From an uncultured Methanobrevibacter sp. (GTDB taxonomy: Archaea > Methanobacteriota > Methanobacteria > Methanobacteriales > Methanobacteriaceae), in assembly GCF_947166415.1 (NCBI RefSeq), contig NZ_CAMVEE010000015.1:1413-33412 (forward strand): a stretch of 32,000 nucleotides of DNA, given 5' to 3'. Below, in pieces: positions 4,217 to 29,582 of the stretch. The translations under genes were made by a program, and so were the position numbers. Each line of letters starts with the position of its first letter. The first letter of the stretch is position 1. Below the pieces are notes generated by a model that saw only the letters and a program-made list of their open reading frames with translations, had not been told where the DNA came from and did no database searches.

Positions 4217-4447
4217 TTATTCCACTTCAATATTTTCAGCTTCTTCCTTACGAAGACATACGTCATATCCTTTAATAGTCATTTCAATTGGATCTCCCAA
4301 GGTAGCTACTTTTTTAACTTGAATTTTAGCTCCTTTAACGAAACCCATACCTAACAAATGTCTTCTTAAATCGACATCCCCAGTGTCATGATACTTAACC
4401 AAAGTTACTGTTTCACCAGGTTTAACATCTTTTAATGTCCTTGCCAT
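4217..4447 (-). CDS. feoA: FeoA-family small protein (SH3-like ferrous iron transport accessory)
   Basis: 76 aa. The pattern L.D.KPGE...V.........RRHLLGMGF.KGA.I.V......GDPIE..IKGY...LRK.EA..I.V is typical of FeoA. GGTGAT RBS present. Confidence 0.8.
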   Translation of the reverse strand: MARTLKDVKPGETVTLVKYHDTGDVDLRRHLLGMGFVKGAKIQVKKVATLGDPIEMTIKGYDVCLRKEEAENIEVE

Positions 4448-4632: not shown

Positions 4633-6651
4633 CTATCCGAATCCTGCTAATTTTCCAATGTTGAAAATCAAGAATGAAACTATATATGCAGTCACTAAAG
4701 TAATGGCACACATAGTTGCCGCCCATTTATAACTGTTTGTTTCCTGTTTGATTGCACCGATAGCTGCGAAACATGGGGTGTACAACAAGGTAAATGCCAT
4801 GAATGAAAACGCGGACAATGGGGTGAAAGTATCATGTACCAAACTGGTAATACCTTCTTCGTCATCCTCTTCCATACCTGCAAGAGTACCGAAGGTTGCA
4901 ACAACAACTTCTTTAGCAGCCAAACCGGCAATGATTGCCACAGCAGCTTGCCAAGTTCCGAATCCTAAAGGAGCAAAGATTGGTGCAATAACGTTACCTA
5001 TCATACCTAATACACTTTGAGCAGATCCGTATTCAACACCCAATGGGAAAATGCTTAATGCCCATAAAACGATTGAACAAGCAAGAATGATTGTACCTGC
5101 TTTTCTTAAGAATCCTTTTACTTTTTCCCAGGTGTGTAATAATACACCTTTGATGGATGGTATTTTATAAGTCGGCAATTCCATAACAAATGGAGTTGAT
5201 AGTCCTTTGAATAATGTCCTCTTAAGGATAGCTGCAACAATAAGTGCAACAGCAATACCTAATAAATAGATTGCAAGCAATACGTTACCTTGATTGTCAG
5301 CGAAAAATGCTCCTATGAAAATAGCATAGATAGGCAATCTTGCAGTACATGACATGAACGGAACAAGCATCATAGCAAGCATACGGTCCCCTTCATTTTC
5401 CATGGTTCTTGTTGCCATGATAGCTGGAACACCACATCCGAATCCTAAAATCATAGGGATGAAAGCTTTACCGTGAAGACCTACAATCTTGTGCATGAGT
5501 TTATCTAAAGTGAAAGCAGCCCTTGCCAAGTAACCACAGTCCTCCAATATACTTAAGAACAGGAACATGAGAATAATAATTGGCAAGAAAGTGAGAACAC
5601 CACCTACTCCACCTATGATACCATCACAGATGAATGATGCAAGATATTCGTTTGCAATAAATCCTCCAATGAATTCACCTAAAGCGCCGAATGCCTGGTC
5701 AATCATATCCTGGAAAGGAGCTCCGATAGTAAATGTTAATTGGAACATCACCCACATTATAATAATAAATATGAATGGGGCTAAAATCCTGTTAGTCACA
5801 ATCTTATCAATTTTATCAGTAGTAGTCTCTTTTTCAACAGCAGGTCTTTTAACAGCTTCGGCCATTAACCCATCGATAAATGCATATCTTGCATTTGCAA
5901 TGACCTCTTCAGGACCTTCCTTATAAACATCATGCAAATGTTTACTTACTTTATCCACTTCAACCAATATTTTGGATCCATAACTGGACTGTTGAACTTT
6001 TTGAATTACAATAGAATCTTTTTCTAATAATTTGATGGCAGTCCAGATTGAAGGAACATCCAATAGATTGCTGTCCTTTTCAATAACGGCCTGAAGCTCA
6101 GATAAATGTCCTTTAATATCATTGCTGTAAGCTAACTTTTCACTAGAGTCAACAGGATTTTTAGCGGCTTTTTCAACAGCATTCAATAAATCTTCAAAAC
6201 CGTCTTTTGTTTTCGCATTAATTTCCACAACTGGGAACCCTAAAAGTTCACTCATCAATGGAATATCAATTATGTGCTCTTTTTTCTTTGCAAAATCATT
6301 CATGTTAAGTGCCATTACCAAGTTAGCACCCAATTCCATCATTTGAACTGTTAAATATAAATTACGCTCCAGATTAGCAGCATCAACCACATTGACAATC
6401 ACATCAGAATCGTCATCTACAATGAAATCTCTTGAAACGATTTCTTCCATAGAATGAGCGCTTAATGCATAATTACCTGGCAAATCGACAACATCATACT
6501 CATAACTTCCATGTTTAAAATGACCTTCCGCCCTTTCAACGGTTTTTCCAGGCCAGTTACCTACATGTTGACGCATACCAGTTAATTGATTGAATACAGT
6601 AGTTTTACCCACGTTAGGGTTTCCTGCTAATCCTACAATTAATTTTGTCAT
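4633..6651 (-). CDS. feoB: Ferrous iron transporter FeoB (N-terminal GTPase plus membrane permease)
   Basis: G1 motif GNPNVGKTT, G3 DLPG and G4 NMND, followed by a long polytopic C-terminal domain. 672 aa. GGGAG RBS. Confidence 0.92.
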   Translation of the reverse strand: MTKLIVGLAGNPNVGKTTVFNQLTGMRQHVGNWPGKTVERAEGHFKHGSYEYDVVDLPGNYALSAHSMEEIVSRDFIVDDDSDVIVNVVDAANLERNLYLTVQMMELGANLVMALNMNDFAKKKEHIIDIPLMSELLGFPVVEINAKTKDGFEDLLNAVEKAAKNPVDSSEKLAYSNDIKGHLSELQAVIEKDSNLLDVPSIWTAIKLLEKDSIVIQKVQQSSYGSKILVEVDKVSKHLHDVYKEGPEEVIANARYAFIDGLMAEAVKRPAVEKETTTDKIDKIVTNRILAPFIFIIIMWVMFQLTFTIGAPFQDMIDQAFGALGEFIGGFIANEYLASFICDGIIGGVGGVLTFLPIIILMFLFLSILEDCGYLARAAFTLDKLMHKIVGLHGKAFIPMILGFGCGVPAIMATRTMENEGDRMLAMMLVPFMSCTARLPIYAIFIGAFFADNQGNVLLAIYLLGIAVALIVAAILKRTLFKGLSTPFVMELPTYKIPSIKGVLLHTWEKVKGFLRKAGTIILACSIVLWALSIFPLGVEYGSAQSVLGMIGNVIAPIFAPLGFGTWQAAVAIIAGLAAKEVVVATFGTLAGMEEDDEEGITSLVHDTFTPLSAFSFMAFTLLYTPCFAAIGAIKQETNSYKWAATMCAITLVTAYIVSFLIFNIGKLAGFG

Positions 6652-6763
6652 TAACCATTCTCCCTTTTTATTTAACTTCGATAAATTACATTTATTTAAA
6701 TAAAGGTAATTTATACACTAAAAAAATTATTTTTAGTTTAAGTCCATACCGAATATATCAAAA

Positions 6764-6925
6764 ATTAGGTTAACCTAAACATAATTTATTATTATGATTT
6801 TATGATATATAAATATTTAGGCATACCAAATAATTTAAAATTTAGGTACGCCTAAAAATTAGAAAGGTTTATATACTATGATGATCAACATTTAATACAA
6901 GTGATGAAATTTAGGCACACCTAAA
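6764..6925. promoter_or_regulatory. Divergent promoter region with four iron-box-like palindromes (TTTAGG-N4-CCTAAA)
   Basis: ATTAGGTTAACCTAAA 6764-6779, TTTAGGCATACCAAAT 6816-6831, TTTAGGTACGCCTAAA 6841-6856, TTTAGGCACACCTAAA 6910-6925. Box A for feoB lies on the minus strand around 6803-6818. A canonical AGAAAGGTTTATATA at 6861-6875 on the plus strand points away from feoB. The first site matches 13 of 14 positions of the start of the classical DtxR consensus, TTAGGTTAGCCTAA (quoted from memory). Confidence 0.65.
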
Positions 6926-7125
6926 TTATGCCTAAACATTGCTTTAACAAACATTATTTATTAGTCAAAAAACAATAAAATCTCCAAATATAGACAAATA
7001 TTAAATTAGCTTTCACAATTTTCTAATTTAATATTCGGGAAATCTTTGGACGGGATTTCCAAAAACACGCAATTGGTGTTTAACTCTCCTCCATATATTA
7101 AACACCAATTAATCCCCTCTTTTTT
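6898..7125 (+). ncRNA. Candidate iron-box-controlled small RNA, copy 1
   Basis: Plus-strand BRE/TATA at 6861-6875, operator 34 nt downstream, and no credible ORF. A conserved 25-nt core ATTAGCTTTCACAATTTTCTAATTT (7005-7029) differs by 1 nt from the paralog at 17113-17137. Hairpin GGAAATC/GATTTCC at 7038-7060. Terminal hairpin GGTGTTTAA (7075-7083) / TTAAACACC (7098-7106) with loop CTCTCCTCCATATA, followed by T6 (7120-7125). The 5' end is inferred, not observed. Confidence 0.5.
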
Positions 7126-7139
7126 AAAAAAAATAATCT

Positions 7140-7631
7140 TTAAGGACCCTCGCCATCATAAGTTGAGGCATCATCATATATTTCCTCATCCCAATAATTA
7201 TACTCAATATAATCATCGATTTCCTGATTCAGACCCCAATGATGGTCATCATAATAGGTATATGGATTAAAAGAATTTTTAGAATATACCGTGACTATGT
7301 CGGTTTTCTCGGCGGTTTTATAATGGGAATCGCCGTCGAATTTGACATTTACATTGTACATTCCAGGATCATATTTCAATCGGATTTCACTATAAGGCTT
7401 ATATGCCCATTTATAATTTCCATATTTGTCTGTGATATTATAATGAATGGTCCCCTTACTTTTTATAGATTTTCCATGACTATCAACCAATTTAATTGTG
7501 ATGTAACCGTTATTACCGTTACCATTATCAGAACTGATTTTGACTTTGACATTCTCTTTAGCGAATGCCGGTGCGGTCAACAATAAACAAACAGAAACAA
7601 AAACCAGCAGCATAATGATTTTCCTATCCAT
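7140..7631 (-). CDS. Secreted protein with signal peptide, beta-rich domain and acidic Tyr/Asp-rich C-terminal tail
   Basis: GGTGAT RBS 5 nt before ATG 7631 (MDRKIIMLLVFVSVCLLLTAPAFA, signal-peptide-like). The track start at 7655 lacks an RBS. C-terminus: YTYYDDHHWGLNQEIDDYIEYNYWDEEIYDDASTYDGEGP. Confidence 0.6.
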   Translation of the reverse strand: MDRKIIMLLVFVSVCLLLTAPAFAKENVKVKISSDNGNGNNGYITIKLVDSHGKSIKSKGTIHYNITDKYGNYKWAYKPYSEIRLKYDPGMYNVNVKFDGDSHYKTAEKTDIVTVYSKNSFNPYTYYDDHHWGLNQEIDDYIEYNYWDEEIYDDASTYDGEGP

Positions 7632-7747
7632 TGAAATCACCCATATAATGTGCATATATTGTTACTAATACTATTTAAGTCTTTAAAGAATGTTGAATAA
7701 AACAACATTTAAATCATTTAACACCCAAACATAGTAACGGTGATTGA

Positions 7748-8209
7748 ATGATAGACTATGAAGACATTATGAAGGATGCGCCGCATCTGATTTGCTATTT
7801 GATTTCATTGTCCAAAACACATGATTTTTACATAAATAAGCATATTAAAAACGAAACTGAAATTTTGCCGAGCCAATATTACATGTTGATGTTTTTATAT
7901 CATGAAATGGGAACCAACCAATCTGACATTGCAAAAGCCTGCTTAATGGACAGAAGCGGAGTTTCAAGGGCTTTTAAAGATTTTGAAGAAAAAGGATTGA
8001 TAACAAGAGAAATAGATGAAAACAATAAAAGAGCCTATAAAATTGCATTGACCCAAAAGGGAATCGAAACAGCCCAATTTTTAGAAAGAAAAGAATTAGA
8101 ATGGGATGAAATGATTTGTGAAGAACTGGACATTTCACGTGATGAATTGTTCAAAACACTATCTGAATTGTCCTTAAAATCATTGTATTTCAACAGAAAA
8201 CATTTCTAA
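7748..8209 (+). CDS. MarR-family winged-helix transcriptional regulator
   Basis: 153 aa. The central wHTH segment QSDIAKACLMDRSGVSRAFKDFEEKGLITRE..ENNKRAYKIALTQKG is typical of MarR/SlyA. GGTGAT RBS at 7738-7743. Confidence 0.75.
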   Translation: MIDYEDIMKDAPHLICYLISLSKTHDFYINKHIKNETEILPSQYYMLMFLYHEMGTNQSDIAKACLMDRSGVSRAFKDFEEKGLITREIDENNKRAYKIALTQKGIETAQFLERKELEWDEMICEELDISRDELFKTLSELSLKSLYFNRKHF

Positions 8210-13701: not shown

Positions 13702-14421
13702 TTAACCAAAGAAGTTCTCAATTCCTTTTGATGCCAACAATCCTACAAAGGCACCTTGTTCATCCATAATAATATTGCCTTTTGAGTATTGGTCAACTGC
13801 AGCATTAACCATAGCGGATTTTACAGAAGGCTCCTTTGCCTTTTGAGCTGCCGCCTTAACAATACTAAGTACCGCGTCAGCCCGAGATACGCCATTACCC
13901 CAATCCTCTTCACGAATAATGTCGATTCCGCTTGCAGTAGTTTTTGTTCCATTTACCTCAATCTCACCGGCTGCGGAAAGTATTGCATCTAATGCCTTGC
14001 TGTTAATTGCCACGACATTGTCTATGGATTCGTTTGTACGGTATTCCACAATTTCCTTAGCAAGCCTCATTCCTTCAGCATTGTCTGCACTGTAAAAGGC
14101 ATCATGCATCAGCAATGCTGATCCTGCACCTTGCTTTTGATATTCTTCCGGTTCAGAAGCGGTTGGATGTGTCATCCCACCAGGATAAAATGCGGAATAA
14201 TTCTTTAAATTACCATTTTCCAAATGAATGATAAATGCCATATCACATGCGCCCATACCCGGTCTGTCTTCACTTTCGTCAATGGCACAGACCAAAATAT
14301 TCTTATTTCCATTGGATAATTCGGAATGGTCACCCATGAAAAGCGCACCTGCAATTATTAAAACTAATCCAATAAGAACTACAATTAAAATGGCAATGAT
14401 AAGCTTTTTTGTCCTACCCAT
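13702..14421 (-). CDS. Membrane-anchored extracytoplasmic protein, LytR-CpsA-Psr (LCP)-like
   Basis: An N-terminal TM anchor is followed by NILVCAIDESEDRPGMGACDMAFIIHLENG... and ...IDNVVAINSKALDAILSAAGEIEVNG. These parallel the LCP pattern (N-ILLLG-D.R...RSDT-M...; ID-Y--VNF-GF---VDALGG--V). The similarity is weak and judged by eye. Confidence 0.4.
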   Translation of the reverse strand: MGRTKKLIIAILIVVLIGLVLIIAGALFMGDHSELSNGNKNILVCAIDESEDRPGMGACDMAFIIHLENGNLKNYSAFYPGGMTHPTASEPEEYQKQGAGSALLMHDAFYSADNAEGMRLAKEIVEYRTNESIDNVVAINSKALDAILSAAGEIEVNGTKTTASGIDIIREEDWGNGVSRADAVLSIVKAAAQKAKEPSVKSAMVNAAVDQYSKGNIIMDEQGAFVGLLASKGIENFFG

Positions 14422-14793
14422 AGTAAAACCTACCTTTAATTAATTTTGTAAGGGAGTATATTTTTTTTATCGTACTTAAATATTACCACATAATTGAACA
14501 AAATAATAAAAATTACTTACAATTGCAGCCAAAAAATAAACACCATAATCTTTTCAAGATACTTTTCTTCTCTTTTTTATCTTCTTCAATAGAACAGCAT
14601 TTAGCTTTGTTTTCTGTTTTGACCATAAAAATCAACTAAAAATTTGATATGTGGAAATTAAATATGAAAATCATATTTAATTTCTTGAGAGTAGTTATAT
14701 GTCTTAATCAACTAAGAAAATTTGTTATTAATCAATTAAACAACAATAATCGGAGCCTTATATGGTTTAAAACCAAGACATATCGCAATTAAA

Positions 14794-14877
14794 TTTAGGC
14801 ATTCCTAAAATTAATCACTAATTATAATATTCATCTCAGACTATATAAATGTTTCTAAATTTTTAGGTTTACCTAAA
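14794..14877 (-). promoter_or_regulatory. Third operator-TATA-operator module (iron-box-like), pointing toward 14421
   Basis: TTTAGGCATTCCTAAA 14794-14809 and TTTAGGTTTACCTAAA 14862-14877. On the minus strand, AGAAACATTTATATA (plus 14842-14856) lies between them. Spacing and orientation match the modules at 6841-6925 and 17203-17289. Confidence 0.55.
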
Positions 14878-14986
14878 AAATGAGGGGATTCTGACTTCAA
14901 GCAGGAAAACAAAAATGAGAAAAATTCAGTTAACTTATTATTTAACAAAACATAAACAATTAATTATAAATCATGGGGAACATCTG

Positions 14987-16030
14987 ATGGGAAAAAATAG
15001 AGTCGAATGGATTGACCTTGTGAGGGCTATCGCAATTTAACCGTTTTATATATCCATGCAACCGATGGAATTTTCATCATTTCATCTGATGCAATACTGA
15101 ACTACACTATTTATTCAAGAATATTCAATTTTGCATCCCTTTTCATCGGTCGTATAGGCGTCCCTTTCTTTTTAATGATAACCGGGTATCTGCTATTGGA
15201 TAGGCACTATGATGATGAGCGTGTCCGTAAGTTCTGGAAAAAAAACTGCAAATGACTAATCATAATTACTGTCATCTGGTCAATAATTTATGCAATAAGC
15301 CTTCAGGTAATTACAGTTGAAAGTGCCCAAGTTAACATTTCAGAAGCCGGAAACTTATTCTTCAGTCACATGTGGTATATGCCTATGATTATCGGAATGT
15401 ATCTTTCAATACCATTTGTTTCCGCGGCTCTTGAGCGATTTGACCCGAAAACAATCTATCAGGCAACTATAGTGTTTACACTATTGGCATTCCTGCTTCC
15501 ATTCATTACAACAGTAATGGCCATGCACGGCATCCAAAATGTCAATATCCAATATTGCCTCGGATTCAGCGGAGGAGTTTATGGAATTTATATAATTCTT
15601 GGATATTTAGTTAAAAAAGGATTGTTTAAAAAGTATTCTTCCGGCAAATTGGGAATACTTGCAATAGTATCATTTTTAATTTGCGTAGTGTTCCAGTATT
15701 ATTCATTCATTAAGGGATATGATTTTTTCCTATGGTATGAATTCCCATTCGTTTTGACCGGATCATTCGCATTGTTTGAACTTTGCTCTAGAATGGACAA
15801 TGTTAGAGCATACCCTCTAGTTAAATTCTTATCAAAATACTCATTTGCAGTCTTTTTAGTGCACAACATATTCAGATTGCCGTTGCTTCCACTTGTTGTG
15901 CTGCTTCCTTATTCAGAACCGGTCAAAAGCAATAATACTTTGGATTTTATTGATAATCTTCAGTTACATTGCTACTGTAATAATCTATAGAATCCCAAAA
16001 TTTGGAAAATATATTCTGTACATGAGATAG
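14987..16030 (+). pseudogene. Acyltransferase family 3 (OafA-like) gene disrupted by two frameshifts and one nonsense codon
   Basis: MGKNRVEWIDLVRAIAI then TAA at 15038. The sequence continues one frame over as LTVLYIHATDG...GVPFFLMITGYLLL (typical acyltransferase-3 N-terminus). An in-frame TGA lies at 15253-15255. The 15370..15990 ORF (HMWYMPMIIGMYLSIPF...) continues. A further shift near the A-run around 15925 restores ILLIIFSYIATVIIYRIPKFGKYILYMR, ending at TAG 16028-16030. Confidence 0.75.
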
Positions 16031-16031
16031 T

Positions 16032-16883
16032 TTAATCAAATATCTCTTTTATTTCTTTAAATGCACTTCTTGCTTCAGGAATTGGAAAAAGAGGATATAT
16101 ATGGAATAATCCATTTCCAGTGATGAACTTTACGTTAACACCATCATCTTCCAGATTTTTAACATACCTTTTTATGTCCTTGTAAAATATTTCGTCTGTA
16201 CCTGCAAAGATTAATGTATCGGCCAAACCGGCATTATCCCCAAATAGCGGACTTACCCTATAGTCGTGAGTGTCTAAATCACTAGCCCATGATTTACCTA
16301 CCTCTTTAAGGCCGATTTCGCCTAAAATCACATCATTTTCACTGTCATAAGGAGGATTACTCATTGACACATCAACCCATGGCGAAAAGCTTATGATTCT
16401 CTCCGGTTGAGGCAGACCTATTGTTTTTAGATATTGGCAAAATGAGTGGATAAAACCGCCGCCTGCAGAGTCCCCCATCAAAGTTAAATTGCCCCTCTGA
16501 ATCAGCATTTCATACAACCCTGTGATTACATCATAAGTTTGCATAGCGCTACTTTTAGGAGCAAGCGGGTAAACAGGTGCAACAACATATGCATCCAGCT
16601 TTCGTGACAGCAAAAAACAATATAATAAATGCTGATAATTTATTTCCATAACATAAGCTCCACCATGCATGTACAAAATAGCATTCGTAGCGTTTTCATC
16701 CCCAAATGTGAAAACAGGTGTTCCACCAATGTCACTGCTTTTGAAAATACCCTTAGGAAGTTTGCTGTCTGATGGATTTTTTAACAAATCCTCAACCTTT
16801 TCGGCAGAATCCATGAAATCGGGTTTATTGAATCTCAAAATGAATTCCTCTATTTTTGCAATGAAAAATTTTTCGCCTGACAT
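16032..16883 (-). CDS. Alpha/beta hydrolase, esterase/lipase of the HSL (fold-3) type
   Basis: Oxyanion-hole motif HGGAY and the nucleophile elbow GDSAGG. 283 aa. Confidence 0.8.
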   Translation of the reverse strand: MSGEKFFIAKIEEFILRFNKPDFMDSAEKVEDLLKNPSDSKLPKGIFKSSDIGGTPVFTFGDENATNAILYMHGGAYVMEINYQHLLYCFLLSRKLDAYVVAPVYPLAPKSSAMQTYDVITGLYEMLIQRGNLTLMGDSAGGGFIHSFCQYLKTIGLPQPERIISFSPWVDVSMSNPPYDSENDVILGEIGLKEVGKSWASDLDTHDYRVSPLFGDNAGLADTLIFAGTDEIFYKDIKRYVKNLEDDGVNVKFITGNGLFHIYPLFPIPEARSAFKEIKEIFD

Positions 16884-17020
16884 ATTGTAATCATCAACAT
16901 TCCTTAAAGGAGTGAAAAGAAATATTTTTAAACTCCCCTTATTTTCTCAAAAAATAATATCTTTTTAAAAATTATATAGAGAAGTTATATTTTTTCTAAT
17001 TAATATATTATGATATTTTC

Positions 17021-17230
17021 AAAAAAATAGATAATAGGTGTTTAAAATTGAGGTGATTTTTAAACACCGAAGAGTTATATGGAAAATTTGGCAGATAATT
17101 TTCCGAAATATCAAATTAGAAAATTGTGAAAACTAATTCGATATTTTTAAAGATTTTGGAGATTGTATATTCGACTGATAATATACGTGTTAAGAGAAAA
17201 AATTTAGGCGTGCCTAAATTTCTGTTCTCA
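17021..17230 (-). ncRNA. Candidate iron-box-controlled small RNA, copy 2 (inverted paralog of 6898-7125)
   Basis: Minus-strand CGAAACCTTTATATA (plus 17253-17267) with an operator 34 nt downstream (17203-17218). Conserved core at 17113-17137 and AATCTCCAAA at 17155-17164. Hairpin GGAAAATT/AATTTTCC at 17081-17104. Terminal hairpin 17037-17068 whose minus-strand loop reads AATCACCTCAAT, followed by T7 (plus A7 at 17021-17027). No credible ORF. Confidence 0.5.
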
Positions 17231-17289
17231 TATAATTAGTAGTTGGCCATAGTATATAAAGGTTTCGGTATTTTTTAGGCATGCCTAAA
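17203..17289 (-). promoter_or_regulatory. Operator-TATA-operator module (iron-box-like) driving the copy 2 RNA
   Basis: TTTAGGCGTGCCTAAA 17203-17218 and TTTAGGCATGCCTAAA 17274-17289 flank the box A at 17253-17260. Confidence 0.6.
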
Positions 17290-17410
17290 TTTTAGCCATG
17301 GTTTTATCCAAATATAGCACGTGTTATATAACAGATTGTATAAAATAATATATAAATATTTCGGCTAACCAAAAAAATAGAATAAAAAAATAATAAAAGA
17401 TTGAAAGATC

Positions 17411-21211: not shown

Positions 21212-21265
21212 ATACTATACTACCTAGTAATAACCATATAAATGTTATTAAAGTATTACTATTCA
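21205..21265 (-). promoter_or_regulatory. Duplicate of the Flp-like operon promoter module, facing unit A
   Basis: GATAATCTATACTATACTACCTAGTAATAACCATATAAATGTTATTAAAGTATTACT matches 25005-25060 with about 5 mismatches over about 56 bp. On the minus strand it reads GTAATAC, 10 nt, TTTATATG, GTTATTAC. Confidence 0.6.
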
Positions 21266-21534
21266 TAACAAGCTTTAAATTAGAAATAAAGATGTCAGTT
21301 TCTTTTAAATAAATTAAAAATATGCCCCAACCCAAATTATTCGAAAAGGACAGCCCAACATTCCCCGACGAAAAAAAATAATAAATTAAAAAATCATTAA
21401 AATAATCTTAAATTAAAAAATACTTCCTTAAAATAATTCGCAAATACAAACATGAACTTTAAATAGATATTTCATTAAAAAGATAAAAATAAAGGAGTAA
21501 AATTTGATTTTATCCCCAAACATATTAAAAAATA

Positions 21535-21566
21535 AAATGTAATACTTTTTTAAAAAATAATACTAC
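21535..21566. repeat. 32-bp element GTAATAC-N11-ATAATACTAC (copy 1 of 2)
   Basis: GTAATACTTTTTTAAAAAATAATACTAC (GTAATAC 21539-21545, ATAATAC 21557-21563) is nearly identical to 25342-25369, with the same 11-nt spacing. Confidence 0.55.
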
Positions 21567-21996: not shown

Positions 21997-22404
21997 CTAT
22001 TTTAATTCCAATGGCCCAAGTTTTGAGAGAGTTTTATGAAATTCTTCCATAGTTCTCTGAAATTTTTCACCTTCGGATGCTGAAATCCATTCATGACGGA
22101 ATCTCTCTTTTTCAATCCCAAACTCTTCAAGAATATCCTCTACAATTTTTGACCTTCTGGACCATTTGTAGTTACCTGCGTCATAATGGCAGTCACCAAT
22201 ATGGCACCCACCTACAAATACTCCATCGGCACCTTCCTGAAATGCTTTGAAAATCATTGAAGGGTTGATTCTTCCAGAGCACATTACACGAATAATTCTG
22301 ATGTTTGGAGAGTATTGCATACGTGCAGTTCCTGCTGTATCAGCACCACCATAACAACACCAGTTACATAATAAACCTACGATTTTTAAATCATCTGCCA
22401 TCAA
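21997..22404 (-). CDS. MvhD-like iron-sulfur protein (methyl-viologen-reducing hydrogenase delta subunit family)
   Basis: 135 aa. The pattern C.WC.Y.GAD.AG..R.QY....R.IRV.CSGR......AF..GADGV.V.GCH.GDCHY is diagnostic of MvhD/FlpD-type proteins. Confidence 0.85.
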
Positions 22405-22412
22405 ACCACCTC

Positions 22413-23552
22413 TTATAATTCTGTTTTTTCTGGACTGTATAATGGAGGTTTGATATCATCTAAAACTCCAGCTACATAACCAGTTCTATTATAGTATTTT
22501 TTCTGCAATTTATCGAAAATCAATGAAACAGGAATGTCCATCGGACAAACATCATCACATTGGCCACAATCCACACAACTGAAACTCATGTGTGATAGCC
22601 TTACTCCCTGGAACGCTATTGGGAGAGGAGGGATGTTTGCTTCATCCTTGAAGTATGGTTTGTTCAATTCACAGTTTTCGAAGCACCAACAGATCGGACA
22701 AATGTCACGACATGCATAACAGCTAATACATCTGCTCCATTCATCCATTTCACTAACCAGTGGATAAGTGGCATCCTGATTCTTTTTAGCCATTTTGATC
22801 ATGATATTTTCAACTTTTGATCTGCCTTCAACAGCAGGCTCGGAAGGAGACTTGGTTTCAAGAATTCCTGCCTTTTTTGCACCATCTATTAATTCTTGGC
22901 CTTTTTCATCATTGATTTCTATGAATGTCCAGCCGTCCTCTGCTCCCCAGTTTCCACAGGCGATGTTTGCCTTTCTTGGGATTTTCACATCACATCTCTG
23001 GCAGTTTTTACGGCGTCCGTAACCTTCATTTTCAAGGTCATGGATTTTGACTGCCTCTTCGGAACCGTCTGCAAGTTCAATGATAAACTGTCCCTTATCG
23101 ATTTCTTCACTTATGACATCATCAGGATTGGCTTCATAGAACAGGTCAATCATCTCTCTTCCGCTAACAGGAGATACTGTTCCACCACAATTTAAACCAA
23201 TCATGTAAATATTATCCTTATTAATTTTGTGTCTAACTATAAGCTCTTCAACAGCCCTCATATCACATGGTTTGACTGTAAATGCAACTTTTTTATCAAA
23301 GAAATATTTTTGAACAAGATCACCAATCATTGTTGGAGCACAATGATAAGATCCTGCAGTTTTTAATAAATCCTGTGAATCAGTGATGAAAACAGGAAAA
23401 GCATCATAAACATCATCTTGAGGACTTAATGCCAAAACACCATCAACCAATCCTTCATCCAGCAAATATTTGAGAATGCTGGTTACGGCCCCTCCGCATT
23501 CACCAGCTTCATGAATTTCATTATTTTGAGATTTTGCTAAAACATAACTCAT
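22413..23552 (-). CDS. FdhB/FrhB-family F420-reactive flavo-iron-sulfur subunit with C-terminal 2x[4Fe-4S] ferredoxin motifs
   Basis: N-terminal [21 protein letters not shown] and AGS.Y are FrhB/FdhB-like. The C-terminal motifs are [16 protein letters not shown] and [16 protein letters not shown]. Confidence 0.8.
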
Positions 23553-25004: not shown

Positions 25005-25063
25005 ATAATCTATACCCTACTAACTAGTAATAACCATATAAAGGTTATTATAGTATTACTCTC
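25005..25063 (-). promoter_or_regulatory. Promoter module of the Flp-like operon
   Basis: The minus strand reads AGTAATACTATAATAACCTTTATATGGTTATTACTAG. GTAWTAC lies at plus 25053-25059, 10 nt from box A (plus 25035-42), and the inverted repeat TAATAACC/GGTTATTA straddles the TATA box. The module sits about 60-100 nt upstream of ATG 24943. Confidence 0.65.
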
Positions 25064-25337
25064 AAAATTGGAAGTTTTTAAGACAATAAAGATAAAATAA
25101 GCTTTAAAAAAAATCAAAACACAAACCACATATCTTTATTTCATGAAAAAATGAATGAGGTTGATTTTTTAAGAAAAAATAATAATAGCAAAAACTGCAC
25201 AAATAAGACGTAAACAACGAAATAAGTTAATAAAATGATTATCTGCATTAATCGATAAAGCATTCCATCCAATTTATAAAAATAATGAAATATGTTGAAT
25301 TAAAGAGTGAAAATATTATTAAAACTATAAAGATAAA

Positions 25338-25369
25338 AGTAGTAATACTTTTTATAAAAATAATACTAC
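25338..25369. repeat. 32-bp element GTAATAC-N11-ATAATACTAC (copy 2 of 2)
   Basis: GTAATACTTTTTATAAAAATAATACTAC (GTAATAC 25342-25348, ATAATAC 25360-25366). It lies between the hcgG-like 3' end and the Flp-like promoter. It also forms an imperfect palindrome, AAGTAGTA...TACTACTT. Confidence 0.55.
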
Positions 25370-26899: not shown

Positions 26900-26972
26900 G
26901 AAAATTTACTCCAAGACAGTTATTAACTAATATATTTTTCAGTGAAATCTTTAATAAATATGTTTCGATTTT

Positions 26973-27097
26973 GTATTACTGAAAATTAATTAAATCAATT
27001 GTATTACAAAATAAAAAGTAATACTAAACTATAATATTCCAAACAAATAGTATTATCAGTATTACTAAAAATAATAAAATAATAGAAAAAATAATAC
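26973..27097. promoter_or_regulatory. Dense GTAWTAC heptamer cluster in the divergent hcgG-hmd control region
   Basis: GTATTAC at 26973-26979, 27001-27007 and 27059-27065. GTAATAC at 27018-27024. Near copies: GTATTAT 27050-27056, ATAATAC 27091-27097, GTAATAA 27182-27188. GTATTAC-N10-GTAATAC forms an inverted pair at 27001-27024. Confidence 0.6.
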
Positions 27098-27228
27098 TAA
27101 ATAAAGACCAATGTAAAGATTTAAATAGTACTACTTTTTAAATATAAATTATTACTGCATAGAATAAAAAACCATAATTAAGTAATAAAAAAGCAATATG
27201 ACACATTTAGACCATGCAGTAAAACTTT

Positions 27229-27285: not shown

Positions 27286-27291
27286 GAAAAA

Positions 27292-28305
27292 ATGAAAGTA
27301 GCAATTTTAGGTGCAGGATGTTACAGAACACATGCTGCAAGTGGAATTACCAACTTCTCAAGAGCTGTAGAAGTTGCTGAAGCAACCGGTAAAGAAAACA
27401 TTTCCATGACCCACTCCACAATCGAAATGGGTGCAGAATTATTAGAATTAGCAGGTGTAGACGAAGTAGTAGTATCCGACCCAGTATTCGACGGAGACTT
27501 CACCGTAGTAGAAGACTTCGACTACGCAGACGTAATCGCAGCTCACAAAGCAGGAACCCCCGAAGAAGTAATGCCAGCAATCAGAGCAAAAGTCACCGAA
27601 TTAGCAGAAACCGTACCAAAACCAGCTAAAGGCGCCATTCACTTTACTCACCCTGAAGACTTAGGAATGAAATGTATCAACGATGACGCAGAAGCAGTAG
27701 CAGACGCTGACTGGGTAATGACCTGGTTACCAAAAGGCGGAATGCAAAAAGAAATCATCGAAAAATTCGCACCTAACCTAAAAGAGGGCGCTATCCTAAC
27801 CCACGCATGTACCATTCCAACCACCAAATTCAACGACATTTTCGAAGAATTAGGCGCAAAAGTAAACGTGGCTTCATATCACCCAGGTGCAGTACCTGAA
27901 ATGAAAGGACAAGTATACATTGCAGAAGGATACGCTGACCAAGCAGCTATCGATACCTTACTCGACTTAGGTAACAAAGCAAGAGGAGCAGCATACACAT
28001 TACCAGCAAACTTATTAGGACCAGTATGTGACATGTGTTCCGCAGTAACCGCAATTACCTACGCAGGTATCTTAGCATACAGAGACACAGTAACTCAAAT
28101 CTTAGGTGCTCCGGACGACTTCGCACAAATGATGGCAAACGAAGCATTGACCCAAGTAACCGCATTAATGAACGACGAAGGTATTGCAAACATGGATGAA
28201 GCATTAGCACCATCCGCATTAACCGGTACCGCTGACTCAATGAACTTCGGATCATTAGCAGAAATCGTTCCTACCGTATTAGATTACTTAGGCAAAGAAG
28301 AATAA
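27292..28305 (+). CDS. hmd: H2-forming methylenetetrahydromethanopterin dehydrogenase ([Fe]-hydrogenase) Hmd, copy 1
   Basis: MKVAILGAGCYRTHAASGITNFSRA is the hallmark Hmd N-terminus. 337 aa. THACTIP contains the Fe-ligating Cys region. Codon usage is strongly biased. hcg genes are adjacent. Confidence 0.93.
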   Translation: MKVAILGAGCYRTHAASGITNFSRAVEVAEATGKENISMTHSTIEMGAELLELAGVDEVVVSDPVFDGDFTVVEDFDYADVIAAHKAGTPEEVMPAIRAKVTELAETVPKPAKGAIHFTHPEDLGMKCINDDAEAVADADWVMTWLPKGGMQKEIIEKFAPNLKEGAILTHACTIPTTKFNDIFEELGAKVNVASYHPGAVPEMKGQVYIAEGYADQAAIDTLLDLGNKARGAAYTLPANLLGPVCDMCSAVTAITYAGILAYRDTVTQILGAPDDFAQMMANEALTQVTALMNDEGIANMDEALAPSALTGTADSMNFGSLAEIVPTVLDYLGKEE

Positions 28306-28360: not shown

Positions 28361-28436
28361 AAGTGTTTAAAAAAAAGAACCCTTAAAAAATAAGTTAATT
28401 TTTATACTTATGAAAAATTGGAGATTGGTGTTAAAA

Positions 28437-29582
28437 TTGTTAGAAAAACTTAAAAAAATATTCGGCGTTAAAGATGCAGTAGAAACTGTTGAAGCAAAAA
28501 CTGTCGATGAAAAAATTGAAGAAGAAATCATAGCCGTAGAAGAAACCGTTGAAAAAACAAAGAAAATGAAAGTGGCAATTTTAGGTGCAGGATGTTACAG
28601 AACACATGCTGCAAGTGGAATTACCAACTTCTCAAGAGCTGTAGAAGTTGCTGAAGCAACCGGTAAAGAAAACATTTCCATGACCCACTCCACAATCGAA
28701 ATGGGTGCAGAATTATTAGAATTAGCAGGTGTAGACGAAGTAGTAGTATCCGACCCAGTATTCGACGGAGACTTCACCGTAGTAGAAGACTTCGACTACG
28801 CAGACGTAATCGCAGCTCACAAAGCAGGAACCCCCGAAGAAGTAATGCCAGCAATCAGAGCAAAAGTCACCGAATTAGCAGAAACCGTACCAAAACCAGC
28901 TAAAGGCGCCATTCACTTTACTCACCCTGAAGACTTAGGAATGAAATGTATCAACGATGACGCAGAAGCAGTAGCAGACGCTGACTGGGTAATGACCTGG
29001 TTACCAAAAGGCGGAATGCAAAAAGAAATCATCGAAAAATTCGCACCTAACCTAAAAGAGGGCGCTATCCTAACCCACGCATGTACCATTCCAACCACCA
29101 AATTCAACGACATTTTCGAAGAATTAGGCGCAAAAGTAAACGTGGCTTCATATCACCCAGGTGCAGTACCTGAAATGAAAGGACAAGTATACATTGCAGA
29201 AGGATACGCTGACCAAGCAGCTATCGATACCTTACTCGACTTAGGTAACAAAGCAAGAGGAGCAGCATACACATTACCAGCAAACTTATTAGGACCAGTA
29301 TGTGACATGTGTTCCGCAGTAACCGCAATTACCTACGCAGGTATCTTAGCATACAGAGACACAGTAACTCAAATCTTAGGTGCTCCGGACGACTTCGCAC
29401 AAATGATGGCAAACGAAGCATTGACCCAAGTAACCGCATTAATGAACGACGAAGGTATTGCAAACATGGATGAAGCATTAGCACCATCCGCATTAACCGG
29501 TACCGCTGACTCAATGAACTTCGGATCATTAGCAGAAATCGTTCCTACCGTATTAGATTACTTAGGTAAAGAAGAAGAATAA
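28437..29582 (+). CDS. hmd: Hmd copy 2, with an N-terminal E/K/V-rich extension
   Basis: From ATG 28566 the sequence is the same protein as copy 1 plus one extra C-terminal Glu. The frame stays open upstream to ATG 28410. There is no SD before ATG 28566. TTG 28437 is preceded by GGTG (28427-28430) in the same ttGGTGttaaa(a)TTG context as the hcgA start at 29702. Alternative starts are 28410 and 28566. Confidence 0.85.
   Translation: MLEKLKKIFGVKDAVETVEAKTVDEKIEEEIIAVEETVEKTKKMKVAILGAGCYRTHAASGITNFSRAVEVAEATGKENISMTHSTIEMGAELLELAGVDEVVVSDPVFDGDFTVVEDFDYADVIAAHKAGTPEEVMPAIRAKVTELAETVPKPAKGAIHFTHPEDLGMKCINDDAEAVADADWVMTWLPKGGMQKEIIEKFAPNLKEGAILTHACTIPTTKFNDIFEELGAKVNVASYHPGAVPEMKGQVYIAEGYADQAAIDTLLDLGNKARGAAYTLPANLLGPVCDMCSAVTAITYAGILAYRDTVTQILGAPDDFAQMMANEALTQVTALMNDEGIANMDEALAPSALTGTADSMNFGSLAEIVPTVLDYLGKEEE

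Follow-up and report, generated by a model that had tools for sequence, protein, structure and literature searches.

Iron-sparing small RNAs (sRNAs) are a central part of bacterial metal homeostasis, and the control of an sRNA by a metal repressor is well known in bacteria, a case with a repressor of the DtxR family included. In Staphylococcus, IsrR is a 174-nucleotide (nt) Fur-regulated iron-sparing sRNA with proven targets (PMC9410917), and in Mycobacterium the promoter of the iron-limitation sRNA MrsI (ncRv11846) carries a site for IdeR close to the transcription start (PMC6016810). Among the archaea, TroR is a DtxR-family iron regulator of Haloferax volcanii, for which chromatin immunoprecipitation sequencing (ChIP-seq) defined the motif TTTAGGC-NNN-CCTAAA (PMC10783522); this motif is usually present in several copies per promoter, and either of two copies suffices to repress iron-uptake promoters under iron-replete conditions (PMC10783522). 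Here we analyse a 32,000-nt stretch of DNA from an uncultured Methanobrevibacter sp. (contig NZ_CAMVEE010000015.1, positions 1,413 to 33,412; hereafter the window), in which the 488-nt gap between the ferrous iron transporter gene feoB and a convergent gene at 7140-7655 holds an sRNA locus. A protein encoded nearby is 100% identical to an NCBI entry under the name uncultured Methanobrevibacter sp., M. thaueri being the closest of the named species at 83%. On balance we favour the reading that the + strand at 6897-7125 is the gene of a stable regulatory RNA, non-coding and about 225 nt long, which is controlled by a metal repressor and most likely pairs with mRNAs in trans. An earlier reading made from the letters of the window (the sequence-only reading) had proposed at this place a promoter gated by an iron box, firing away from feoB into a gene-free stretch and giving a candidate iron-responsive sRNA with an anti-Shine-Dalgarno loop. 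The elements of the locus are as follows.

6841-6856: operator box 1, TTTAGGTACGCCTAAA, at about -58 to -43 from the predicted start and shared with the divergent feoB side
6861-6875, + strand: AGAAAGG resembling a B recognition element (BRE), then the TATA box TTTATATA (6868-6875), in rightward orientation
6897-7125, + strand: predicted sRNA copy 1, about 225-229 nt, matched by covariance model R1 over 6894-7123 (94.4 bits, E = 1.5e-23)
6910-6925: operator box 2, TTTAGGCACACCTAAA, at about +12 to +27 from the predicted start
6899-6944, + strand: P1, the 5' hairpin predicted by folding, all six outer-stem pairs of which have changes on both sides
6957-6979, + strand: P2, a short A/U hairpin predicted by folding, variant in copy 1, with the consensus AUUAUU-AGUC-AAUAAU
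6979-6990, + strand: predicted single-stranded linker motif AAUCUCCAAAUA, a candidate seed with an invariant CUCC
6997-7035, + strand: P3, a 13-bp hairpin supported by fold and alignment, with the loop CUUUCACAAUUUU (7010-7022)
7038-7060, + strand: P4 hairpin, with the atypical loop UUUGGACG in copy 1 and the family consensus loop AUCUGCCAA
7071-7110, + strand: P5, the terminal hairpin predicted by folding, with the loop CUCUCCUCCAUAUA (7084-7097) and the conserved stem GGUGUUUA/UAAACACC
7120-7125, + strand: oligo-T (T6) terminator, abutting an A8 run (7126-7133) which serves the convergent gene 7140-7655 as its T8 terminator

A family of related elements could be assembled from this locus and from a second copy in the window. 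The 19-mer common to both copies was scanned against one genome per prokaryotic species and gave 29 loci in 27 Methanobrevibacter assemblies, the other matches being scattered chance hits in unrelated taxa. Because alignments made with MAFFT only misplaced P1 and P4, a seed of two near-identical members with a hand-checked five-hairpin structure was adopted together with realignment by Infernal, and the resulting covariance model found 33 full-length copies in 27 Methanobrevibacter genomes (36-242 bits), including tandem second copies that lack the 19-mer (L009, L045, L080). A scan of metagenomes with a pattern that is independent of the 19-mer, built on the P4 loop and the P5 stem, added about 42 copies, some of them much more divergent at 34-80 bits, so that the family now comprises 75 copies, 72 of them distinct. 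Tandem copies are present in many genomes, a tandem pair in M. intestini WWM1085 among them. At gathering thresholds, Rfam 15, which covers RyhB, PrrF, FsrA and other iron sRNAs as well as snoRNAs and riboswitches, gave no match anywhere in the window, and searching 6700-7200 at E up to 10 returned chance-level matches only, the best having 24.9 bits against a cut-off of 80 bits.

Comparison of these copies points to an RNA on the + strand. In the genome set (32 distinct sequences) 96.6% of the cells pair and 34 of the 52 pairs change on both sides, with a covariation of 0.263, compared to 0.105 in shuffled alignments, none of 500 of which attain the observed value, and to 0.074 or less with slid partners. 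The full set of 72 distinct sequences behaves in the same way: 96.2% of the cells pair, 42 of the 52 pairs change on both sides, and covariation is 0.269 versus 0.110 shuffled (again 0/500) and no higher than 0.060 in slid controls. With a plain MAFFT alignment, RNAalifold already reports A-U/G-C and U-A/C-G exchanges in P3. G-U pairs exceed A-C mismatches 118:33 in the full set (39:10 in the smaller one), which identifies the + strand of copy 1 as the RNA, and the folds of copy 1 and copy 2 are far more stable than those of shuffled sequence (z = -5.4 and z = -8.3, respectively). Among the 33 genome-derived copies, neither strand has an open reading frame (ORF) that keeps its position or frame, a conserved ORF in homologous loci being what the sequence-only reading had set against its own proposal. 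Its statement that the region has no plausible ORF also agrees with our count, the longest forward ATG ORF being 16 codons (MPKHCFNKHYLLVKKQ), and the sRNA region has just one listed ORF, a mechanical frame opened by TTG (7046-7270), which continues antisense into the neighbouring gene. On covariation, strand-specific G-U pairs and the oligo-T end, the candidate sRNA holds up as a conserved non-coding structured RNA, and we have high confidence that a real, conserved, structured RNA gene lies on the + strand.

The promoter in front of this RNA is equally recurrent. All copies keep the same order of operator, BRE/TATA, about 23 nt, five hairpins and an oligo-T run, and the 33 genome-derived copies share without exception the layout TTTAGGnnnnCCTAAA, 9-11 nt, GAAAnnTTTATATACTATG, about 17 nt, ATACAAGTGA and box 2, the block GAAAnnTTTATATACTATG (GAAAnn-TTTATATA) recurring with few substitutions in each of them. 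Of the 69 copies for which upstream sequence is available, 68 have box 1, 68 have the TATA box and 65 have box 2. The box A AGAAAGG-TTTATATA was located by the sequence-only reading at 6861-6875, where we find it too. Its core AAA-NN-TTTATATA fits the classical methanogen box A consensus, AAANNTTTATATA, and stands in + orientation, so that transcription would proceed rightward, away from feoB, as had been proposed. The start of copy 1 was placed from the TATA spacing and the conserved ATACAAGTGA, and its end at the T6 run. A scan for bacterial-type signals, confined to loops of 3-8 nt and sigma-70 hexamers and unsuited to an archaeal locus, missed the terminal hairpin and gave promoters at chance level.

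The single elements of the RNA show the following features. P1 contains operator box 2 in its upper part; it is nevertheless more than a DNA palindrome, since at least three copies retain P1 without box 2 and since it tolerates one-sided insertions. The closing pair of P2 is U-A in 55 sequences and C-G in 11. In the linker, where the sequence-only reading had pointed out AATCTCCAAA at 6979-6988, CUCCAAA is found in 71 of the 72 distinct copies, and in each of the two sequence sets, which were selected independently, the linker is conserved to 97% or more. The 25-nt core that had been proposed at 7005-7029 is indeed conserved, but as part of a longer block of 57 nt (6986-7042) that is 82% complementary to 17100-17156. 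It overlaps P3, whose stem pairs covary (A-U/G-C, U-A/C-G) with many G-U pairs, and whose loop core CACAAUUU, like the sequence of the inner stem, reaches a conservation of 97% or more when the sequences are chosen without reference to the loop. The two hairpins named in the sequence-only reading are both real, although the family has five: the internal one at 7038-7060 is P4 (GGAAATC/GATTTCC), in which seven of eight pairs change on both sides, and the terminal one at 7075-7106 is P5, extended to 7071-7110 in the minimum free energy fold. The anti-Shine-Dalgarno loop that had been assigned to the latter exists here as the 14-nt CUCUCCUCCAUAUA at 7084-7097; it is not a family-wide trait, however, because CUCC or CCUC occurs in the terminal loop of 28/32 sequences of the genome set and 16/40 of the metagenome set (44/72 distinct copies in total), which makes it a clade feature. 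The candidate anti-Shine-Dalgarno element of the family as a whole would be the linker instead. Downstream of P5 the T6 tract at 7120-7125 is where it had been described, and all 72 copies end in a run of at least four T, 60 of them with five or more and 12 with T4.

Neighbouring genes and the further promoters and copies of the window that bear on the following argument are these.

4217-4447, - strand: feoA (Pfam), downstream of feoB
4633-6651, - strand: feoB (Pfam), ferrous iron transporter, divergent from the sRNA and sharing its operator
6764-6832, - strand: feoB promoter, with the TATA box 6806-6813 (TTTATATA on the - strand) between two boxes
6765-6778: feoB box TTAGGTTAACCTAA, near the feoB start site
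6817-6830: degenerate feoB box TTAGGCATACCAAA, abutting the feoB TATA box
7140-7655, - strand: convergent gene for a 171-amino-acid (aa) protein without significant family match
7748-8209: MarR-family gene, beyond the 171-aa gene
14794-14877, - strand: third box-TATA-box promoter (boxes 14862-14877 and 14794-14809, TATA 14842-14849), with no sRNA body
17020-17289, - strand: copy 2 (RNA 17020-17234, box 2 17203-17218, TATA 17253-17260, box 1 17274-17289), downstream of the aEF-1beta gene

Two kinds of surroundings recur. Type 1 loci (at least 13) have the order feoA-feoB (-), sRNA (+), 171-aa gene (-), MarR and TctA, and in them the T run of the sRNA abuts an A run that is the oligo-T terminator of the convergent gene, so that both transcripts would end back to back without overlap. 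Type 2 loci (at least 10) contain ABCE1, Pth2, amino-acid-kinase-family, zinc-ribbon and aEF-1beta genes, followed by one or two sRNAs and DUF4012. In four of the five type 2 loci examined, and in M. intestini, a separate box-TATA-box promoter lies 3' of the sRNA, followed by a conserved leader, about 230 nt long, and by a likewise conserved 37-aa Cys-rich ORF and DUF4012; the equivalent of this promoter in the window is 14794-14877 (- strand). M. intestini merges both types, feoAB facing three sRNA-like units and then Cys-rich/DUF4012, with four consecutive box promoters. The second copy that the sequence-only reading had noticed in the window has the same layout (17020-17295, - strand): its alignment with copy 1 takes in the whole unit, from one operator through BRE/TATA, the other operator, the linker and three hairpins as far as the T run. 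Copy 2 matches R1 at 103.5 bits, and the gene that follows it is an unrelated hydrolase. As separate observations on these copies, a P3-only remnant (L073 5015-5072, - strand) and truncated copies (L044 4214-4408 and L145 1456-1648) were seen among the related loci, the truncations including one copy without P4 and half of P5 and another without promoter and P1, which suggests copy turnover within the genus. Copy 2 is separated from the Cys-rich/DUF4012 operon by an alpha/beta-hydrolase gene (16032-16883) and by an acyltransferase-3 gene (14975-15990, + strand) that is apparently disrupted, its ORF covering only the C-terminal 206 aa (15370-15990) and the acyltransferase-like sequence upstream of 15370 seeming to be broken by stop codons; in other genomes this operon directly follows the sRNA. 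The 171-aa protein (7140-7655, - strand) has a hydrophobic N-terminus, an acidic, aromatic-rich C-terminus and sub-threshold Ig-like matches (Big_3_5, Filamin), and its gene, convergent to the sRNA and beside feoAB in at least 13 loci, may possibly be linked to iron uptake.

Against this background the explanations that dispense with a stand-alone RNA can be weighed. A role in cis, as leader or attenuator of the gene that follows, for example as the 5' untranslated region (UTR) of the Cys-rich ORF and DUF4012, would suit the type 2 loci, which place the element upstream of those genes on the same strand, and the T4-only ends make read-through plausible; yet in at least 13 type 1 loci, copy 1 among them, the next gene is convergent with abutting terminators, in most type 2 loci examined the Cys-rich ORF has the promoter of its own described above, and the gene after copy 2 is an unrelated hydrolase, so that we consider a leader very unlikely. 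It could also be argued that no functional RNA is made and that the palindromes act at the DNA level, as operators and as a bidirectional terminator for feoB and the convergent gene, given that P1 contains an operator and that P5 could fold on the other strand, beside the 3' end of the gene at 7140-7655. What makes this highly improbable is the G-U excess (118:33), the retention of P1 in copies without box 2 and its asymmetric insertions, the occurrence of the sRNA unit away from feoB and in tandem, and the full consensus promoter that points into the sRNA region. A small protein encoded by the region was tried and rejected: short ORFs do exist in single copies, such as the 16 codons here, and reverse-strand TTG frames reach 48 codons, but no ORF is conserved in position or frame, the indels are not multiples of three, and the reverse-strand fragment IKLENCEKLI is reached from different frames and interrupted in about one third of the copies, which leaves this explanation scarcely credible. 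A C/D-box small nucleolar RNA was likewise set aside, since the GUGAUGA at 6901-6907, seen together with a weak snoZ182 match, is absent from other copies.

As to the control of the RNA, its operator TTTAGGYNNRCCTAAA is identical to the ChIP-defined motif of Haloferax TroR. The palindrome TTAGGNNNNCCTAA occurs eight times in the 32-kb window where 0.99 occurrences are expected, a number that none of 100 shuffles reaches, and its sites lie at promoters only, in three places, with four at 6765-6924, two at 14795-14876 and two at 17204-17288. The gating by iron boxes claimed in the sequence-only reading is in line with this, as two operator copies bracket the sRNA promoter and another two the feoB promoter, the motif being that of an iron-dependent DtxR-family repressor (TroR), and the type 1 loci examined likewise have the two boxes next to feoB. 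The third promoter drives the conserved leader, the 37-aa Cys-rich ORF (14516-14626) and the DUF4012 gene (13702-14421) on the - strand and probably belongs to this regulon as well, so that the shared operator outlines a small candidate regulon of feoAB, the sRNAs and the Cys-rich/DUF4012 operon. We consider it quite likely that the sRNA is co-regulated with feoAB by a DtxR-type repressor, and the analogy to TroR, together with the operator shared with feoAB, suggests that its promoter would be gated by iron.

Two observations on the Cys-rich/DUF4012 operon may be added here. The 37-aa Cys-rich ORF MVKTENKAKCCSIEEDKKEKKSILKRLWCLFFGCNCK (14516-14626, - strand; also L054 4658-4765 and L069 4105-4197) is apparently unannotated; its position is between a box-TATA-box promoter and DUF4012, at least 10 related loci have it conserved, and in M. 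smithii/intestini-like contigs it takes the variant form ...CCE...FFFGCCK; it has no match in Pfam or NCBIfam, and its product may be a metal-related peptide of the same regulon. The leader that precedes it (14627-14877, - strand; also L054 4371-4660, L076, L007, L037 and L069 3780-4100) is about 230 nt long and starts with a P1-like hairpin, followed by a hairpin UUGGUUUU..AAAACCA, the motif ACUCCGAU and a hairpin AAAUUAAAUAUG...CAUAUUUAAUUU, and possibly represents another structured RNA with a relationship to the sRNA.

A mechanism can be proposed from these parts. The sRNA would be transcribed from a consensus methanogen BRE/TATA promoter sandwiched by operators centred near -50 and +20. 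When iron is plentiful, a metal-loaded repressor of the DtxR family (TroR/IdeR-like) would shut off the sRNA, feoAB and Cys-rich/DUF4012, and when iron is scarce all three would be derepressed together. The five-hairpin RNA would then expose three near-invariant unpaired sequences, CUCCAAA(A)U in the linker, UUUCACAAUUU in the loop of P3 and AUCUGCCAA in that of P4; base pairing of these motifs with mRNAs in trans is proposed because they are unpaired and near-invariant. Occupation of GGAG Shine-Dalgarno (SD) sequences by CUCC might lower the translation of dispensable iron-rich proteins, in the manner of RyhB, IsrR and MrsI, and CUCC does complement GGAG-type ribosome-binding sites in the window, such as GGAGAGAG before an fdh-like operon. 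We infer the identity of the repressor, the responsiveness to iron, the action in trans and the targets from these relations, and an iron-sparing base-pairing regulator is, in our estimate, a tenable though somewhat doubtful interpretation of the sRNA.

Candidate targets were sought in the window and in about 0.5 Mb of related loci by means of the complements of the linker, the P3 loop and the P4 loop, and in the window also by a sliding duplex-energy scan. The most suggestive candidate site, AAUUUGGAGAUU plus UUGGAGAGAG, lies in the 5' UTR of the fdh-like operon, which encodes a molybdopterin oxidoreductase, an FdhB-like iron-sulphur (Fe-S) protein and MvhD, and is conserved in four of five orthologous loci. 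Two anecdotal matches were also encountered: the MvhD start region UGAUGGCAGAUGA (22386-22425, - strand) complements the P4 loop AUCUGCCA, and in M. smithii-like contigs the cbiQ start region UUUUGGAGAUUAAUAAUUGGCAGA (L126 2598-2625, + strand) complements the linker and the P4 loop. The cbiQ start site was discarded as a target, the match not being conserved in the window.

Some points weigh against a repressor-controlled RNA that pairs in trans. The searches yielded no enrichment and no significant or recurrent target complementarity in the 32-kb window and the roughly 0.5 Mb of related loci, and the 5' UTR of the fdh-like operon is 84% conserved throughout, with the most distant ortholog lacking the site, which does not stand out from the conservation of the UTR as a whole. 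Pfam finds no DtxR-family gene in the window, and a C. diphtheriae DtxR query had no tblastn match in the related loci that were fetched; as the DtxR family also senses Mn and Zn, iron is suggested as the metal only by feoAB and the TroR analogy. Both the start and the end of the sRNA are predictions, the T4-only ends in 12/72 copies make some read-through possible, and the pair counts (34/52 and 42/52), coming from alignments that were fitted to the structure, lean towards the model structure. Finally, the conservation of the stem and loop of P3 would suit a protein-binding module as well as it suits a seed.

This last point leads to the explanation that the RNA is real and metal-regulated but binds a protein or ligand, as a decoy, scaffold or sensor, with the near-invariant P3 hairpin AAUUAG-CUUUUCACAAUUUU-CUAAUU as its recognition module. 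The inner stem and the loop of P3 are both at least 97% conserved, which goes beyond the needs of pairing, similar sequence-conserved stems in IsrR were taken by its authors for a possible protein site (PMC9410917), and the searches made gave no convincing mRNA targets. This absence of targets carries little weight because only a small fraction of any genome was searched, and three separate conserved unpaired motifs, including a CUCC complementary to local SD sequences, speak against binding by a protein or ligand, so that we hold it to be unlikely. The repressor might also sense another metal (Mn, Zn or Co/Ni) and thus place the sRNA in a different metal-homeostasis circuit. The DtxR family includes sensors of Mn and Zn (TroR, MntR and SirR), FeoB-type transporters can carry Mn in some organisms, and the Co/Ni transporter operon cbiMNQO adjoins feoAB. 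In opposition to this, the motif is the site of Haloferax TroR, a shown iron regulator (PMC10783522), and the operator, which brackets the promoter of feoAB, was not detected in front of cbiM, where there is a cluster of the different repeat AGTATTACT; a circuit for a metal other than iron accordingly seems rather improbable to us. With these explanations considered, the reading of the locus as a metal-regulated RNA that pairs with mRNAs in trans is the one that we retain.

The repeat just mentioned was seen elsewhere in the window as well. The near-palindrome AGTATTACT/AGTAATACT is enriched, with 36 matches at up to one mismatch versus 7.9 expected, and forms intergenic clusters at 989-1206, 21252-21564, 25052-25367 and 26972-27226, which lie upstream of cbiM (Co/Ni transporter), the fdh-like/MvhD operon, hcgG and hmd. 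It flanks the TATA box of the fdh-like/MvhD operon, an arrangement that four orthologous loci have kept. We regard the repeat as the candidate operator of another regulon, possibly one that responds to nickel. Separately, two paralogues of hmd ([Fe]-hydrogenase) stand in tandem at 27292-28305 and 28410-29582; a 300-nt stretch of them (27289-27588 and 28563-28862) is reported as 100% identical, suggesting recent gene conversion, and their downstream regions are repeated too (81 nt, 77% identity). The 52-aa N-terminal extension of the second hmd ORF is probably a mis-called start.

The possible meaning of the family lies in the physiology of its hosts. The iron demand of methanogens is among the highest of all organisms, since Fe-S enzymes take part in almost every step of methanogenesis, and in both the human gut and the rumen Methanobrevibacter dominates among the methanogens. 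In Rfam and in the literature searched, we found neither an archaeal iron-sparing sRNA nor a description of a Methanobrevibacter sRNA. It is a tentative proposal, which we would not yet call probable, that this RNA is the first archaeal iron-sparing riboregulator, under DtxR-type control and co-induced with feoAB, in which the CUCCAAAAU linker and the loops throttle Fe-S enzymes of methanogenesis. If this were true, the throttled enzymes could include formate dehydrogenase, Mvh/Hdr-associated proteins and hydrogenases, the iron supply of gut and rumen would be coupled directly to methane output, and a restraint of Fe-S methanogenesis enzymes by the RNA would have a bearing on methane mitigation. 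Genus-wide conservation, covariation and a clear promoter, operator and terminator give a precise handle on post-transcriptional iron reallocation in an archaeon, and the family allows SD occlusion by an sRNA to be asked about in Methanobacteriales.

Compared with known systems, the family shares its operator with the TroR regulon of Haloferax volcanii, which likewise has several copies per promoter and comprises iron-uptake genes, but is haloarchaeal and has no sRNA member named in the main text of PMC10783522. The archaeal trans-acting sRNAs characterised so far, M. mazei sRNA154, sRNA162 and sRNA41 and Hfx. volcanii s479, SHOxi and sRNA132, include some that pair at ribosome-binding sites and some that are tied to nitrogen, zinc, phosphate or oxidative stress. 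They are unrelated to the present family in sequence, and we found none of them described as controlled by an iron repressor; the family has much deeper comparative support than they do, while being known from sequence alone. Among the bacterial systems, RyhB of Enterobacteria and PrrF1/PrrF2 of Pseudomonas follow the same logic, in which a metal repressor acts on an sRNA and the sRNA reduces iron-rich proteins, and PrrF resembles the family further in being present as tandem or paralogous copies that are each equipped with a separate operator, although these sRNAs are Fur- and Hfq-dependent, about 90-110 nt long and bacterial. MrsI is similar in having a promoter site for a DtxR-family repressor and a short conserved unpaired seed, but it is bacterial, carries the seed in a single 5' hairpin, shows no homology, and its operator is the 19-bp IdeR box instead of the TTTAGGC-N3-CCTAAA found here. 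IsrR differs in its sigma-70 promoter, its control by Fur, its Rho-independent terminator, its single-copy state and its bacterial host, and there is no homology of sequence or structure; yet it too is a stand-alone sRNA of similar size class and conserved genus-wide, with two repressor boxes, at the promoter and just after the start site, and with several hairpins and a terminator, some of its stems being conserved in sequence. In IsrR, C-rich or pyrimidine-rich single strands hit SD sequences in an AT-rich genome, which parallels the role proposed here for CUCC. What is new in Methanobrevibacter is an RNA family outside the bacterial domain, which combines an archaeal type of promoter and terminator with five hairpins and occurs in multiple copies.

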